Of a stretch of 64,000 bases of DNA, positions 29,888 to 39,937 are shown one piece after another. The position numbers and the translations under genes are program-made. Numbering within the stretch: position 1 is the stretch's first letter; each line of letters opens with the position of its first letter. The stretch comes from Escherichia phage vB_Eco_OMNI12: sequence record OL362041.1; one strand, 5' to 3'. The notes under the pieces were generated by a model. That model was not told the origin of the DNA. It saw only the letters and a program-made list of their open reading frames with translations, and did no database searches.

Positions 29888-30349
29888 TCATTGAGTTTTA
29901 ATTACTGCTTTAGAAGCCTTTCCTGGTAAACGACGACTATTGATAATTGCCATCCTGCATTGAAGCGACGGGTCTTTGAACTTCGCATTAGGTTTACAAA
30001 CTGTAAATCCAAGCCAAAGATTTCCATCTGTGATTTCTAAACGTCCAGGACGGTATTCAACCCCATCAATAAAATCCTCATCAATGTCAGGACGCGGAGG
30101 CATACTCAGGAATTCATTAACTTCTAAAACATGGTCTTTTATTTTGTGGAATAATTCAAAAACATATGTCTCATCAATCTCCCGTTGAATTGCACGATCA
30201 AGAAGATGCTGAGAATATTTTAGATGAAACGATGAGACCCCTGCTGCTTTTGATGCCTCACGAATCTCATTGTTAATTTGACGAAACTCCGACTCAAAGT
30301 GACGACGAAGCTTATTTCGACGGATAAAAACTTCTGTATTGATAGTCAT
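29888..30349 (-). CDS. regB: endoribonuclease RegB
   Basis: 153 aa; MTINTEVFIRRN N-terminus; same length as T4 RegB (identification from memory). Confidence 0.65.
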   Translation of the reverse strand: MTINTEVFIRRNKLRRHFESEFRQINNEIREASKAAGVSSFHLKYSQHLLDRAIQREIDETYVFELFHKIKDHVLEVNEFLSMPPRPDIDEDFIDGVEYRPGRLEITDGNLWLGFTVCKPNAKFKDPSLQCRMAIINSRRLPGKASKAVIKTQ

Positions 30350-30989: not shown

Positions 30990-31167
30990 CTAAACGAATA
31001 GGTTCATGAATGCCATATCCCTGAACAGAAATTTCTGTCGTAGGATAAATTCCACTAATATCACCCATATTCCACGCTTCATTAAATTGCTGTTCGCCTG
31101 AATTACTAAACCATTCTGCGAAAGCATTTAACACATCTTTAGAACCTTCAATAATTATCTTTGCCAT
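30946..31167 (-). CDS. hypothetical protein
   Basis: ORF track 73 aa. Confidence 0.4.
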   Translation of the reverse strand: MAKIIIEGSKDVLNAFAEWFSNSGEQQFNEAWNMGDISGIYPTTEISVQGYGIHEPIRLVEYDLCTGEEVKYD

Positions 31168-31529
31168 TACAAGCTCTCAGTAAAGGTACGAGCGATAACG
31201 TCGCGCTGCTGTTCCGGAGTCAGAGAGTTAAAGCGAACTGCATAACCGGATACACGGATGGTCAGCTGCGGATATTTTTCCGGATGCTTAACTGCATCTT
31301 CCAGAGTTTCACGACGCAGAACGTTAACGTTCAGGTGTTGACCACCTTCAATTTTAACTGTAGGCTGTTGCTCAATTTCAATTTCACGGGCATGCAAACC
31401 ATAGAAAATTTCTGGGTCTACAAAAGAGTCCTCTTTAAAGGTTTTAGAGACAATAATTCGTGCTTGAATACCATCTTCAAAATAAATAGTACCTTTATGT
31501 GTGCCTTCAAGAATTTGATATGCTTTCAT
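31167..31529 (-). CDS. autonomous glycyl-radical cofactor (GrcA/YfiD-like)
   Basis: 120 aa; C-terminal [33 protein letters not shown] glycyl-radical signature; 3' half GC-rich. Confidence 0.75.
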
Positions 31530-31535
31530 ATAACC

Positions 31536-31916
31536 TCAATTAGAAAATAATTTTATCCAAGATTGTTCTTTAATTAAAAATGGCTCAGAATCATATGCCA
31601 TTAAACTTTGAGTAATTAATCCTTTAAATGGTCCATCAATAAATTCCATGGTAAAATATGGAATTTTATTCATTAATCTTGCATTAGGAGCAGTGCACAA
31701 AACTCTGCATCCTTTGAATACACCTTTTTGTAATTTGTATTGCTTGGGATAAAATTCGCTCAAGACGTTGTTATTTGCCAAAATTTCAAAATGATTCACC
31801 AATTTATTTTTAATAGTTTTTGGCGAAAAATAAAGATATTCGAAAAGTTGCGTATCTGTCATCATTGCATTCCAATTACGAAAAACTGCGGACGAGTAAT
31901 ACCGCCAATGCAGCAT
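31536..31916 (-). CDS. hypothetical protein
   Basis: ORF track 126 aa. Confidence 0.45.
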   Translation of the reverse strand: MLHWRYYSSAVFRNWNAMMTDTQLFEYLYFSPKTIKNKLVNHFEILANNNVLSEFYPKQYKLQKGVFKGCRVLCTAPNARLMNKIPYFTMEFIDGPFKGLITQSLMAYDSEPFLIKEQSWIKLFSN

Positions 31917-32401
31917 TTACTATTGCAGCAGTGTTGCACAGTTTCAATATGAATATCGTAAATCTTATCCATATCAGGAGATTTGACAGGCTCATCAATT
32001 ATATACAAAATTCGCGAAAGCGATAAACCTCTGAACTTGCTTCCTTTATTACCAATAAAACTGCGCACAGAATCAGTAAATAAACGAAAACGTATATCAT
32101 CATTAGAATAACGCGAAAATTCCTTTTTAATATTATCTGCGGAAATTTTAGCGTAAGCTGAAGTATTAGAAAGAACAATAACTGTTCCGCCATCATACAA
32201 CCAATTAGCAGCAAAGTTAGTCACAGCAATTGATTTACCAGATTGACGCCCACCATCTAGTCGAAGTGTACAATACTGTTTAAGTAAGTCTTCAAATGGC
32301 GGGATATATTCGTTTTTACAAATTTCTTCTACTCTAGCATCAGAATGGTGTGTAAAAGCATTCATCAGGGATAGATAAGGACCAGTTAAAAATGTTCTCA
32401 T
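31862..32401 (-). CDS. P-loop NTPase, hypothetical
   Basis: Walker A GGRQSGKS, Walker B LYIIDEP; start uncertain (Met 1, 7 or 17 of ORF track). Confidence 0.45.
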   Translation of the reverse strand: MRTFLTGPYLSLMNAFTHHSDARVEEICKNEYIPPFEDLLKQYCTLRLDGGRQSGKSIAVTNFAANWLYDGGTVIVLSNTSAYAKISADNIKKEFSRYSNDDIRFRLFTDSVRSFIGNKGSKFRGLSLSRILYIIDEPVKSPDMDKIYDIHIETVQHCCNSKCCIGGITRPQFFVIGMQ

Positions 32402-32546
32402 TTTGTTCTCTCTAGGTTTGGGCCATTCCATGGCGCATGAATTGTCCATTTCTGTATTTACCCATTACCGCACTTGGGCTCGACCTTATTACAGGTTGGC
32501 GGGAATCCCTCACAGAATCATGAGGTCCAGGTTATTCCCATGTTAT

Positions 32547-32963
32547 TTAAATGTAAATATTTTTGCCGTAATACTTATACCAGTGTGGCTTCATTAAAAT
32601 TTTTTCATCGAGTCGTTGTTGACTCAACTTAATAGCTGATTTGCATGGATTATAATCATTTTTTCATTCTACTGGAATATCGCTGATGTCAGGAACTTCA
32701 GTATCTTTTATACTGAACCCGCGTTTTAAGCATTCCGTTATAATGTCCGATTGACGCTTTCGCAAAAATTCTAACTTATCGTAAAAGAAAGTAACATGAC
32801 CAGAACCTAAAATAAATTTAGAAGATATTTTAAAATCTTTAACGCGCTTACCGTTTGCCACATGCTTACGAACTATACCAAAAACACGCGGCAATTCACG
32901 GTATTCTGCGATTAAATGTTGATCAGCAAGTTCAGATACTAAAGTCAAATTAATACGAGTCAT
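32547..32963 (-). pseudogene. denV: denV (pyrimidine-dimer glycosylase, endonuclease V) interrupted by in-frame TGA
   Basis: 99-codon ORF ends at TGA (32666-32664); same frame continues 38 codons ending WYKYYGKNIYI, collinear with remembered T4 endo V (138 aa). Confidence 0.7.
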
Positions 32964-38269: not shown

Positions 38270-38580
38270 GCGGCAACCTTGTCGGGGTTCCACCTGCTAA
38301 GACAAGTGTTTGTACGAAACGCCGGGATTCGAACCCGGTTATTAAGTAGTTGACGCTACTCAATATTTTTAAAAGGCCATATCTCGACCATATCCGAACG
38401 TTCCGTCAAAAACGCTACTCGGCTTACGGCAAAGATATTTCCTCGAATCGATAATTCGGTGCGCCGTTTCTGCTGTGGTGTAAGAGGGCATCAACAAATC
38501 ATAAAGATTTATTAACGCAATTCCTTACCCAGGGAACATCAGTCCGACGACTTACCGGTAGCGACCCGGTTTCTTGTCTG
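38270..38580 (-). ncRNA. tRNA-like small stable RNAs (T4 species 1/2, rnaC/rnaD-like); boundaries approximate
   Basis: No ORF; T-arm-like CCGGGUUCGAAUCCCGG element; lies between tRNA-Arg and terminator as in T4. Confidence 0.5.
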
Positions 38581-38581
38581 G

Positions 38582-38655
<74 letters not shown>

Positions 38656-38658
38656 TAA

Positions 38659-39324
38659 TTAAAATTTCATTTTTCGACCTTTAAACCATCCTTCTGGAAT
38701 TGGGTCAGTTTTCTTAATACGTTTAGAAACTTTTTCATCTAATGAATGAATCCACATCATACCAAATTGGGAATTCTTTTCACCTTGTTGGTGTTTATTT
38801 TTGGCGTGAGATTCTTTCATTTTATTAATAGTTTCAAGAGTATGGGTCTTACCCAAGAAAGATTTAATATTTAAAAATTTCTCTCTATACTTAGGATTAT
38901 CCCAAAGCTGTTTAAACCTTTCTGAACCCATTTTACGATATTTTTCTTTAAGGTCTGGGTCGTTCTCAAATCTGGTTTTAAAAGCAGCAGCCCCTTTTAA
39001 GGAAGCTTCTTTCTTTTTATCCAAATATTCTTTAGTGTTTAAATGGTCCCAACCACCTTCACCACCTAATTTCAAATTATAAACATCAGGGCGCTTTAAA
39101 AACTCTTCAGTCACAATATTCTTTTCTGACTCAAACATAGAGGTTTTATCGTCAAAGAACTCTAATATTTCTTTAGAGAAATTTTCTATACCATACTTGT
39201 CTTGGGCTCTTTTTAATAATTTACCAGAACCCATATATCCATCATCTAAATTTTCGGTAGAATGAGCGCCTATATAGATTTTATTATTAATTTTATTTGT
39301 TATTTTATAAGTGTAATGGAACAT
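38659..39324 (-). CDS. segB: GIY-YIG homing endonuclease SegB
   Basis: 221 aa; GIY-YIG motif YKITNKINNKIYIGAHS; sits inside tRNA cluster as in T4. Confidence 0.8.
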   Translation of the reverse strand: MFHYTYKITNKINNKIYIGAHSTENLDDGYMGSGKLLKRAQDKYGIENFSKEILEFFDDKTSMFESEKNIVTEEFLKRPDVYNLKLGGEGGWDHLNTKEYLDKKKEASLKGAAAFKTRFENDPDLKEKYRKMGSERFKQLWDNPKYREKFLNIKSFLGKTHTLETINKMKESHAKNKHQQGEKNSQFGMMWIHSLDEKVSKRIKKTDPIPEGWFKGRKMKF

Positions 39325-39365
39325 AAATATCTCCTATTTCTAAGAGTATTTATGTTCCCAAAATA

Positions 39366-39437
39366 TGGCCCTGGGTGGAATTGAACCACCATCTGGCGAT
39401 TATGAGTCGCTTGCTTGAACCTTCCAGCTACAGGGCC
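39366..39437 (-). tRNA. tRNA-Ile (anticodon CAU, lysidine-type)
   Basis: 72 nt; anticodon loop CU-CAU-AA; T-arm GGUGGUUCAAUUCCACC. Confidence 0.8.
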
Positions 39438-39443
39438 TTGATA

Positions 39444-39516
39444 TGCTGATTGACGGAATCGAACCGCCGACATCCTCATTACAAGTGAGGTGCTCTACCT
39501 ACTGAGCTAAATCAGC
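39444..39516 (-). tRNA. tRNA-Thr (anticodon UGU)
   Basis: 73 nt; D-arm GCUCAGUAGGUAGAGC; anticodon loop CU-UGU-AA. Confidence 0.85.
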
Positions 39517-39523
39517 GAAATTA

Positions 39524-39610
39524 CGGAGGCGATAGGATTTGAACCTATGAGTCACCGGAGCGACTGCCGGTTTTCAAGACCGGTGCATTAAACCACTCTG
39601 CCACGCCTCC
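39524..39610 (-). tRNA. tRNA-Ser (anticodon UGA)
   Basis: 87 nt with long variable arm; anticodon loop CU-UGA-AA. Confidence 0.85.
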
Positions 39611-39612
39611 AG

Positions 39613-39686
39613 TCTCCGCGGCAGGATTTGAACCTGCGACATTCTGCTCCCAAAGCAGACGCTCTACCAAACTGAGCTACACGGAG
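39613..39686 (-). tRNA. tRNA-Pro (anticodon UGG)
   Basis: 74 nt; anticodon stem UCUGC/GCAGA, loop UU-UGG-GA. Confidence 0.85.
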
Positions 39687-39698
39687 TAAATTAAATTT

Positions 39699-39770
<72 letters not shown>

Positions 39771-39776
39771 AAACTT

Positions 39777-39863
39777 TGGTACGAGAAGTGGGACTCGAAC
39801 CCACAAGGAAATCATTCCGCAGCATTTTAAGTGCTGTGCCTTTACCAATTTGACCATTCTCGC
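39777..39863 (-). tRNA. tRNA-Leu (anticodon UAA)
   Basis: 87 nt with long variable arm; anticodon loop CU-UAA-AA; CCA encoded. Confidence 0.85.
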
Positions 39864-39864
39864 G

Positions 39865-39937
39865 CTGGGAATAAAGGACTCGAACCTTTGCATCTAGCAG
39901 TCAAAGTGCTATGCCTTACCAACTTGGCTAATTCCCA
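39865..39937 (-). tRNA. tRNA-Gln (anticodon UUG)
   Basis: 73 nt; anticodon loop CU-UUG-AC; 1-nt spacer to tRNA-Leu. Confidence 0.85.

Follow-up and report, generated by a model that had tools for sequence, protein, structure and literature searches.

The element described here is a predicted structured RNA of about 118 nucleotides (nt), encoded on the minus strand between genes denV and vs.8 of Escherichia phage vB_Eco_OMNI12 (record OL362041.1), of which a stretch of 64,000 nt, hereafter the window, was analysed. Its closest described counterparts include rnaC and rnaD of phage T4, reported as RNAs of as yet unknown function (PMC9697503). Like the element, these are small phage non-coding RNAs tied to and co-oriented with transfer RNA (tRNA) gene clusters. 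Yet they display tRNA-like 3' ends (rnaD ends in CCA), whereas the element has no CCA end and spans several phage families. A direct kinship was rejected, since no score above 8 bits was obtained when the covariance model of the element's core was run on the rnaC/rnaD region of T4 (L102). Sequences resembling rnaD and rnaC also follow tRNA-Arg in the window, as in T4. As a whole, the locus is probably best explained by a minus-strand, independently folding RNA domain that would belong to a phage-only family and behave as an autonomous module.

Riboswitch aptamers and orphan candidates share with the element their size, an invariant junction core, a closing pseudoknot, occasional tandem copies and, for its copies in T4-like phages, a position 5' of an open reading frame (ORF). 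They differ in that the element is found in phages only and has neither a common downstream gene class, nor a recognisable expression platform, nor an Rfam match. Of the traits that define riboswitch classes, a conserved structured aptamer was found but a steady position 5' of related genes was not, and inspection by eye revealed no alternative pairing conserved within the element. The packaging RNA (pRNA) of phi29 is a phage RNA of approximately 120 nt with a three-way junction and covarying loop-loop pairing. In T4-like phages the element likewise lies beside a small ATPase that resembles the N-domain of the phi29 packaging ATPase (5hd9), but it did not match the Rfam pRNA model and its other carriers lack vs.8. 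This adjacency recalls pRNA by analogy in T4-like phages only, and is not general; T4 packaging is not known to require RNA.

The put RNA of HK022 is a cis-acting antitermination RNA made of two stem-loops. The element resembles it as a phage RNA placed early in a transcription unit and followed, in some phages, by a terminator and then genes, but its architecture is another one and put was not among the Rfam results. Phage decoy and anti-defence RNAs (pseudo-ToxI mimics, RNA anti-CRISPRs and PARIS-neutralising tRNAs) act by binding a component of host defence. The element is, like them, non-coding and found only in virulent phages, but it displays no ToxI-like repeats and no resemblance to CRISPR repeats or tRNAs (ARAGORN). 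PARIS, a tRNA-targeting defence, is reported to be neutralised by phage tRNAs (PMC11464382), and the tRNA-cluster neighbourhood of the element would fit the countering of such defences.

Rfam 15 (4,227 models, including riboswitch, ribozyme, tRNA-like, pRNA and Y-RNA models) provided no match at E values up to 10 for the window, type-B and rV5-like versions of the element, nor at E up to 0.1 for nine other loci. ARAGORN found no tRNA or transfer-messenger RNA at 32400-32550. The element was not described in 8.3 million full texts searched by exact sequence and keyword (subscription journals and supplementary catalogues lying outside this scope), in a T4 transcriptome study, in a 2026 preprint on intergenic features, or in the text of a catalogue of 10,006 phage RNA candidates (PMC10690425). 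Judged by these comparisons, the family is new only in the sense of having no detectable relation to any described RNA family. Possible leads are that GUGCGGUAA may resemble the RNase P S-domain and that there may be a UAA/GAN motif, GGA sites of the CsrA type and a P3 loop like that of tRNA-Tyr, although this loop was not conserved as GUA.

Structure and conservation of the spacer RNA

A preliminary description of this DNA, made from its letters, had singled out a GC-richer, non-coding gap of 145 nt beside denV and suggested that it might be foreign DNA or a structured RNA. The gap was confirmed at 32402-32546, between the ATG of the P-loop ORF vs.8 and the denV stop codon (32549-32547), as was its composition: GC content averages 0.348 over the window but 0.462 in the gap, which places the gap at the 98.1st percentile of all 145-nt segments, and it reaches 0.496 in the structured part (32420-32540). 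A missed coding frame of ordinary composition was looked for and not found. Most of the 30 distinct spacer homologs contain stops in all three frames, and the differences among their lengths (117-174 nt) are not multiples of 3; the spacer thus has neither the conserved open frame nor the indels in multiples of three that mark protein-coding sequence. The structured-RNA reading gained strong support, the segment being conserved, covarying and pseudoknotted in about 1,050 phage genomes. A foreign origin did not: the segment is native to its lineage, with 95% identity to T4 like its neighbours, and cellular genomes had no match; the RNA module is nevertheless common to unrelated phage families.

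The RNA begins 7 nt past the stop codon of denV, and its end lies 20 nt ahead of the vs.8 ATG. Its parts are the following:

32422-32539, minus strand: complete RNA fold from P1 through P6, about 118 nt (30 distinct T4-like copies aligned; pair counts)
32534-32539, minus strand: P1 5' strand GGGAAU, pairing with 32506-32501; all six pairs vary on both sides
32528-32530, minus strand: X, pseudoknot 5' strand, CUG within the P1 internal loop AACCUGGA, pairing with X' at 32454-32452
32508-32525, minus strand: P1b hairpin CCUCA-UGAUUCUG-UGAGG (minimum free energy (MFE) fold, compensatory changes)
32501-32506, minus strand: P1 3' strand AUUCCC, partner of the P1 5' strand (RNAalifold, MFE)
32498-32500, minus strand: P2 5' strand GCC, closing the three-way junction (fixed-offset test)
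32483-32496, minus strand: P3 hairpin ACCU-GUAAUA-AGGU, stem near-invariant, loop consensus RURRNA (RNAalifold)
32469-32482, minus strand: P4 hairpin with GA bulge, C-GA-GC-CCAAGU-GC-G, loop sequence variable, almost no covariation
32463-32468, minus strand: junction strand GUAAUG, GGUAA invariant (invariant columns in alignments A3 and A5)
32460-32462, minus strand: P2 3' strand GGU (fixed-offset test)
32452-32454, minus strand: X', pseudoknot 3' strand CAG, about 8 nt after the junction (pair counts, and by-eye pairs across families)
32437-32449, minus strand: P5 hairpin AUG-GACAAUU-CAU with conserved GGA, T4-like phages only, weakly supported
32422-32434, minus strand: P6 hairpin GCCA-UGGAA-UGGC with GGAA in the loop, T4-like phages, 93% of cells paired, essentially invariant

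The hallmark of the family is a near-invariant three-way-junction core (P2-P3-P4), ACCUGUAAnAAGGUCGAGC-N5-6-GCGGUAA, with approximately 30 near-invariant nt across unrelated phages. A covariance model of this core matched the window at 32502-32458 (68.6 bits, E about 5e-22), the sole copy in the window. The model of the whole RNA was drawn by eye from alignments and then tested on A3, composed of the 30 distinct T4-like copies. In A3, 84.3% of cells were paired, compared with 27-44% when partners were slid by 1-3 columns. The covariation score was 0.181, a value reached by 0 of 500 shuffles, against at most 0.103 in the slid controls, and 16 pairs varied on both sides against at most 8. RNAalifold by itself predicted P1 and P3, and the MFE fold of the window copy recovered P1, P1b and P3. 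G-U pairs were confined to the minus strand, which indicates that the transcribed strand is the structured one.

Individual helices were conserved in different ways. In P1, pairs such as GC 22/AU 8 and GC 15/AU 8/CG 5 were observed (A3 columns 5-10/55-61) and the helix takes a dozen or more different sequences across copies; in the cross-family comparison, 93% of copies had a stem of at least 5 base pairs (bp) ending at the fixed position, a figure that fell to 48% once the upstream sequence was shuffled. In P1b, the two strands had changed in a compensatory way in L121 (CCUUA/UAAGG), and L021 and L036 had each lost one pair by a compensatory deletion. P2 was tested on 50 distinct junction contexts from all phage families, with offsets fixed from the invariant core and no optimisation. 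Its first inner pair formed in 50/50 contexts with five types (CG 39, UA 5, GC 4, AU 1, GU 1) and its second in 49/50 with two (CG 39, GC 10), and P2 beat every shifted register. Two candidates were rejected here: "register 1" of P2, which lost to register 2 in this test, and the MFE alternative hairpin GCCCA/UGGGU, which is disrupted in copies of the JD18/ATK48 type, whereas P2 is retained in all 50 contexts. P3 was paired in 30/30 copies, with one GC-for-AU exchange at its closing pair. In P5, 88% of cells were paired and one pair occurred as GC 16/GU 8, and the AUGGAAU loop corresponding to P6 was also present in rV5-like type A.

The pseudoknot X/X' occurs in several architectures. In type-B copies it was 100% paired, with up to four pair types (A3 columns 14-16/111-113), its central pairs occurring as CG/AU/UA/GC and GC/CG/AU with no unpaired cell. 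Type-A copies, the type of the window, are gapped in these columns and were paired by eye. By-eye pairings in other families were CUCCGG/CCGGAG in Ivi, CGCCGA/UCGGUG in L020, CACAC/GUGUG in L041, CCUGA/UCAGG in L007, CGGA(A)/(U)UCCG in the 46-kb phages, AAACCA/UGGUUU in L056 and GCCAG/CUGGU in rV5-like phages. Cognate X/X' pairing beat non-cognate pairing (13/2000 permutations), in what is a noisy test.

PG7-like T4-type phages contain two tandem copies of the RNA: L025 (about 567 and 680, minus strand), L060 (9028 and 9142) and L133 (370 and 484). The first lacks P5 and P6; the second, which adjoins vs.8, displays a divergent P4 (CCAGUCCGCGACGG or UCAGCCCGCGGCGG). These divergent second copies retain a bulged hairpin at P4 with another sequence (CCAGUC-CGC-GACGG).

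Distribution and genomic neighbourhood

The spacer matched 1,118 phage records, and the 45-nt core was present in 1,050 of 50,697, where it almost always falls in unannotated sequence. Carriers among T4-like phages (Straboviridae) included Tequatrovirus, Mosigvirus, Jiaodavirus, Winklervirus and others, with T4 itself. In T4 (NC_000866) the RNA corresponds to the complement of about 64,821-64,938. The remaining ones were rV5-like Vequintavirinae, complete 46-kb Klebsiella siphoviruses, the 70-kb Pylas, the 45-kb Ivi and contigs of 75-96 kb. Pattern scans recovered 38 genuine viral loci and later further variants, the metagenome loci were genuine in 35 cases out of 35, and 81 distinct copies were collected overall. 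The RNA was always located in gaps of 170-340 nt and always oriented like the flanking genes.

Cellular genomes provided a different picture. There were 0 matches in 5,426 complete Escherichia coli genomes, and the 33 matches among 185,579 species genomes were all chance half-matches without the remaining core, fewer than we would expect by chance for a 17-base pattern. A host, prophage or plasmid origin was thus ruled out by the E. coli, species-genome and plasmid searches. According to these records, the RNA is restricted to phages of Enterobacterales and mobile among phage families. The sole "plasmid" match, CP057073.1:100818-100862, lies in a 137.6-kb "non-mobilizable plasmid" of E. coli that contains the RNA core and probably represents the genome of an rV5-like phage, deposited as a plasmid. 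In addition, 18 "Campylobacter phage" records, e.g. MG065652 (C11, 58.8 kb), displayed the core at about 93% identity; these records, with an RNA core of enterobacterial phages, may be mislabelled or contaminated.

Association with tRNA genes was a recurrent trait. A same-strand tRNA cluster was found in 19 of the 26 non-T4 loci, usually within about 0.7 kb of the RNA, and several of the seven loci without tRNAs end early at a contig edge. In L116 the RNA is inserted between two tRNAs, inside the cluster, and in L137 it lies 47 nt after a tRNA. The window contains eight tRNAs at 38579-39937 (ARAGORN), in a cluster 6 kb upstream of the RNA on the same strand. Protein-coding neighbours, on the other hand, were not shared: vs.8 and vs.7 are absent from carriers that are not T4-like, and the genes downstream have nothing in common. 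On these grounds, neither a link between the RNA and vs.8/vs.7 beyond the T4-like phages nor a common downstream gene was retained.

Further sequences accompany the RNA in particular groups. In rV5-like type B (L037, L039, L044, L112, L119), the direct repeat CCCWUAGAGGGCUUGAWAGUGC occurs on both sides of it and may be a processing or regulatory site. In the 46-kb Klebsiella siphoviruses (L012, L018, L027, L033, L110, L134; e.g. VLCpiS13d and BUCT541), GUGCYCUUWYCGUUGUG boxes and their complement punctuate the tRNA region, and one box pair can form a long stem around the whole RNA. Directly upstream of the tRNA clusters of two contigs of 166 kb and 235 kb (L064:2440-2580 and L065:176-330) lies a different conserved RNA of about 135 nt, which shares with the element only AAGGUCGAGC-N5-GCGGUAAGG (half of the core), ends in CACCA, and had no Rfam match. 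The core model gave it scores of 15.5 and 10.5 bits, and it may be related to the element distantly or by permutation.

Proposed role and alternative explanations

The covariation-backed fold, the roughly 30 invariant nt, the occurrence in three phage groups, the restriction to phages of Enterobacterales and the repeated tRNA neighbourhood together point to a specific and strongly selected function at the RNA level, seemingly acquired independently by several unrelated phage lineages. From alignments and pair counts, we regard the spacer element as very probably a functional structured RNA. In the window phage it would be made as an intercistronic part of the early denV-vs.8 transcript since no promoter-like or terminator-like site was seen between the two genes on the minus strand; in other phages it would come from its own unit or from tRNA precursor transcripts. 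The invariant junction, kept in position by the pseudoknot, would be the surface recognised by a single conserved partner. This partner would be a protein or RNA of the host (Enterobacterales), probably one connected with the processing of tRNAs or with a defence that targets them. The RNA might then act as a stable decoy, sponge or cofactor rather than as a single-gene switch. Such an autonomous, host-factor-binding RNA was favoured because the carriers share hosts and not genes, and because the RNA travels with tRNA genes. It is quite possible that T4 and about 1,000 other virulent phages of Enterobacterales carry a new functional RNA class, exchanged as a tRNA-cluster module and acting as a ribozyme or as a host-factor decoy or cofactor; that the mechanism is a trans-acting, partner-binding one is proposed more tentatively.

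Several points weigh against this proposal. The partner is hypothetical, and the classical stable RNAs of T4 are not known to include any besides the tRNAs, rnaC and rnaD. The folding energy of single sequences was no better than that of shuffles (z about 0), which is uninformative, and P3, P4 and P6 are so close to invariant that covariation speaks neither for nor against them. The type-A pseudoknot of the window amounts to 3 bp (CUG/CAG), and the structure was derived from the sequences on which it was tested, which favours the model over the slid controls. Moreover, the RNA has no extra conservation within Tequatrovirus: its 95% identity to T4 equals that of vs.8, vs.7 and e. The idea of a spacer better conserved than the sequences beside it was abandoned, as it holds relative to denV (73%) only, and the case for the RNA therefore rests on cross-family conservation and covariation. 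Finally, its position 12-30 nt ahead of a start codon in every T4-like phage fits a cis-acting leader as well.

This last explanation, in which the RNA would be a 5' untranslated region of vs.8 (of other genes elsewhere) sensing a ligand or protein and controlling translation or termination, is the most serious alternative, although we find it unlikely. The start codon in question belongs to vs.8 in nearly all cases, with different genes lying upstream of the RNA, the upstream stop codon adjoins P1 so that upstream translation could modulate folding, and a pseudoknot with an invariant-core junction recalls riboswitch aptamers. An intrinsic terminator separates the RNA from the next genes in L056 and in Ivi, where the RNA is flanked by two terminators. 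Yet the downstream genes are unrelated across families, several phages have tRNAs, repeats or a separate promoter next, and in JD18 a further ORF separates the RNA from vs.8. There was no sign of a conserved anti-Shine-Dalgarno or terminator/antiterminator alternative, and bacteria, in which a metabolite riboswitch should also occur, lack the RNA. Clearly less probable is a self-cleaving ribozyme or RNase processing signal that would cut polycistronic or tRNA-precursor transcripts: compact pseudoknotted folds with about 30 near-invariant nt are typical of small ribozymes, the RNA occupies intercistronic sites and sites in tRNA clusters, whose transcripts undergo heavy processing, and the repeats flanking the RNA in rV5-like type B could be processing sites, but no Rfam ribozyme class matched at E up to 10 and no cleavage-site signature was identified.

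A function at the DNA level, either as a linker for recombinational cassette exchange at the hypervariable ip/denV edge or as the footprint of a mobile element, seems very improbable. The RNA does sit at the border between a variable cassette (denV at 73%, ipII and ipIII absent) and the conserved vs genes (95%), and the same core in unrelated phages implies horizontal transfer. However, recombination anchors need identity, whereas the helices covary and G-U pairs are on one strand only; the orientation is always that of local transcription and of the tRNAs, and no terminal repeats or associated endonuclease gene are held in common. Such a role could accompany the conservation of the RNA as a by-product, but would not be what causes it. 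Least credible, to the point of being nearly discarded, is coding sequence, be it an N-terminal extension of vs.8 (219 amino acids (aa) in T4, 195 aa from an ATG at 32449) or a 33-aa ORF starting with GTG (32513-32412). One frame stays open along the element in five type-A copies, that of T4 among them, a 1986 T4 record gives ORF 64.0 two alternative starts and the 195-aa form is common (protein cluster P0001, 1,051 members, being picked by many gene callers). Against this, the frame is closed in the window and in most homologs, an 8-nt indel between T4 and the window lineage closing the 219-aa frame; the 33-aa ORF had no PHROG match, the element occurs in phages without a surrounding ORF and substitutions in its helices are compensatory.

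Should the reading of a new functional RNA class be true, with for instance a tRNA-targeting defence or a tRNA-processing enzyme as the host factor, a layer of RNA-based phage-host conflict would have been hidden in a mis-annotated ORF of T4 since 1986. In this best-studied virulent phage the element is annotated as protein, and in most of its relatives as nothing. T4, T2 and the RB phages would offer a genetically tractable way to ask why phages retain non-coding RNAs associated with tRNA clusters, a puzzle that dates from the description of rnaC and rnaD, and a new ribozyme, aptamer or anti-defence RNA may emerge from the element.

Genes vs.8 and denV and their surroundings

The window belongs to a Tequatrovirus (T4-like) genome and its segment 31500-33100 displays 99% identity with Yersinia phage fPS-65. 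Every gene in this region is on the minus strand, in the order e, denV, spacer, vs.8, vs.7, vs.6/grcA, vs.5-vs.3 and regB, and ipII and ipIII, located between e and denV in T4, are missing. The main features are:

33517-33023, minus strand: e
32547-32963, minus strand: denV (endonuclease V), opal stop in frame at codon 100 (32666-32664)
32399-32412, minus strand: Shine-Dalgarno-like GAGAG and the ATG taken as the true vs.8 start, kept in all homologs
31862-32401, minus strand: vs.8 homolog, a standalone P-loop (ASCE/RecA-like) ATPase of 179 aa (profile, homolog and model evidence)
29888-30349, minus strand: regB (the true one)

The P-loop ORF at 31862-32401 on the minus strand, reported in the preliminary description as having no recognisable family, does encode LDGGRQSGKS (Walker A) and ILYIIDEP (Walker B), and it belongs to no Pfam family, where searches gave only sub-threshold AAA/terminase hints. 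It is, though, the known T4 gene vs.8, or PHROG 1488, with an ATPase fold of the RecA-like helicase/terminase type. The PHROG 1488 profile ("unknown function") was matched over its full length (E = 1.9e-79; residues 3-179 against positions 2-177 of 177), DNA identity to T4 vs.8 is 95% over the short form and the vs.8-vs.7-vs.6(grcA) synteny is the same as in T4, so that profile and synteny agree on family membership. PADLOC and PDB sequence searches with vs.8 provided nothing meaningful. An AlphaFold2 model built from 18 homologs (predicted local distance difference test score 81.5, predicted template modelling (TM) score 0.82) consisted of one RecA-like alpha/beta domain. Its top PDB matches in Foldseek were the first ATPase domains of SF1/SF2 helicases (SLFN11, DSH9, RadD, UvsW and RecD), together with the N-domain of the phi29 packaging ATPase (5hd9), with TM scores of only 0.4-0.5 throughout. 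In a viral structure library it resembled many uncharacterised proteins of 140-180 aa from large myoviruses. With Walker A (GGRQSGKS) and Walker B (IIDEP) motifs invariant or nearly so across homologs and this predicted alpha/beta fold, vs.8 has the traits of an ASCE/RecA-like P-loop ATPase. An exhaustive profile search returned 50 representative clusters among 1.84 billion proteins, and vs.8 is a known, uncharacterised family of small ATPases found only in phages.

Two other identities were rejected for vs.8. A terminase large subunit has about 400-600 aa, with an ATPase and a C-terminal nuclease domain, whereas vs.8 has only 179 aa and no nuclease domain; its terminase matches were weak and partial (Pfam Terminase_6N, E = 0.13; phrog_2, E = 5e-6 over about 105 residues). 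As for the RegB endoribonuclease, no RegB match was obtained in Pfam at E up to 1, nor in PHROGs. The labels "endoribonuclease" or "RegB domain-containing" are nevertheless attached to vs.8 and/or vs.7 in OK274152, OQ944321 and protein clusters P0004 and P0007.

The start of vs.8 has been placed at different positions. The T4 record gives a protein of 219 aa while that of the window and most relatives has 173-181 aa, and the ORF list for the window extends the frame to the ATG at 32449 (195 aa), which reaches into the spacer. These longer forms are unsupported because PHROG 1488 and nearly all full-length relatives, including distant ones (160-185 aa, aligning from residue 1), begin at the short-form ATG. 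On this alignment evidence, the 219-aa T4 annotation, which reads through the RNA, is considered an artefact and 32401 the true start, a correction that would change how vs.8 is annotated in T4 and across hundreds of records.

Gene denV had been reported as broken, and it is indeed interrupted by a stop codon, but it is neither truncated nor frameshifted. A single in-frame TGG to TGA change affects codon 100 (32666-32664) of an otherwise intact 138-codon gene ending at 32547; the reading frame continues undisturbed beyond it, which makes this a nonsense lesion. TGG occupies this codon in fPS-65, vB_SsoM_113 and T4, and the opal codon either arose by recent nonsense mutation or reflects an error in the sequencing. 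With 73% identity to T4, as compared with 95% for its neighbours, this denV is a divergent allele.

Two further observations concern neighbouring loci. An ORF at about 38662-39323 (minus strand), between tRNA-Met(cat) and tRNA-Arg, occupies the position of T4 segB, a GIY-YIG homing endonuclease gene. Gene vs.6 (31167-31529, minus strand) encodes a homolog of GrcA, the autonomous glycyl-radical cofactor (Pfam Gly_radical, E = 2.5e-18), and its C-terminal part appears identical to E. coli GrcA.

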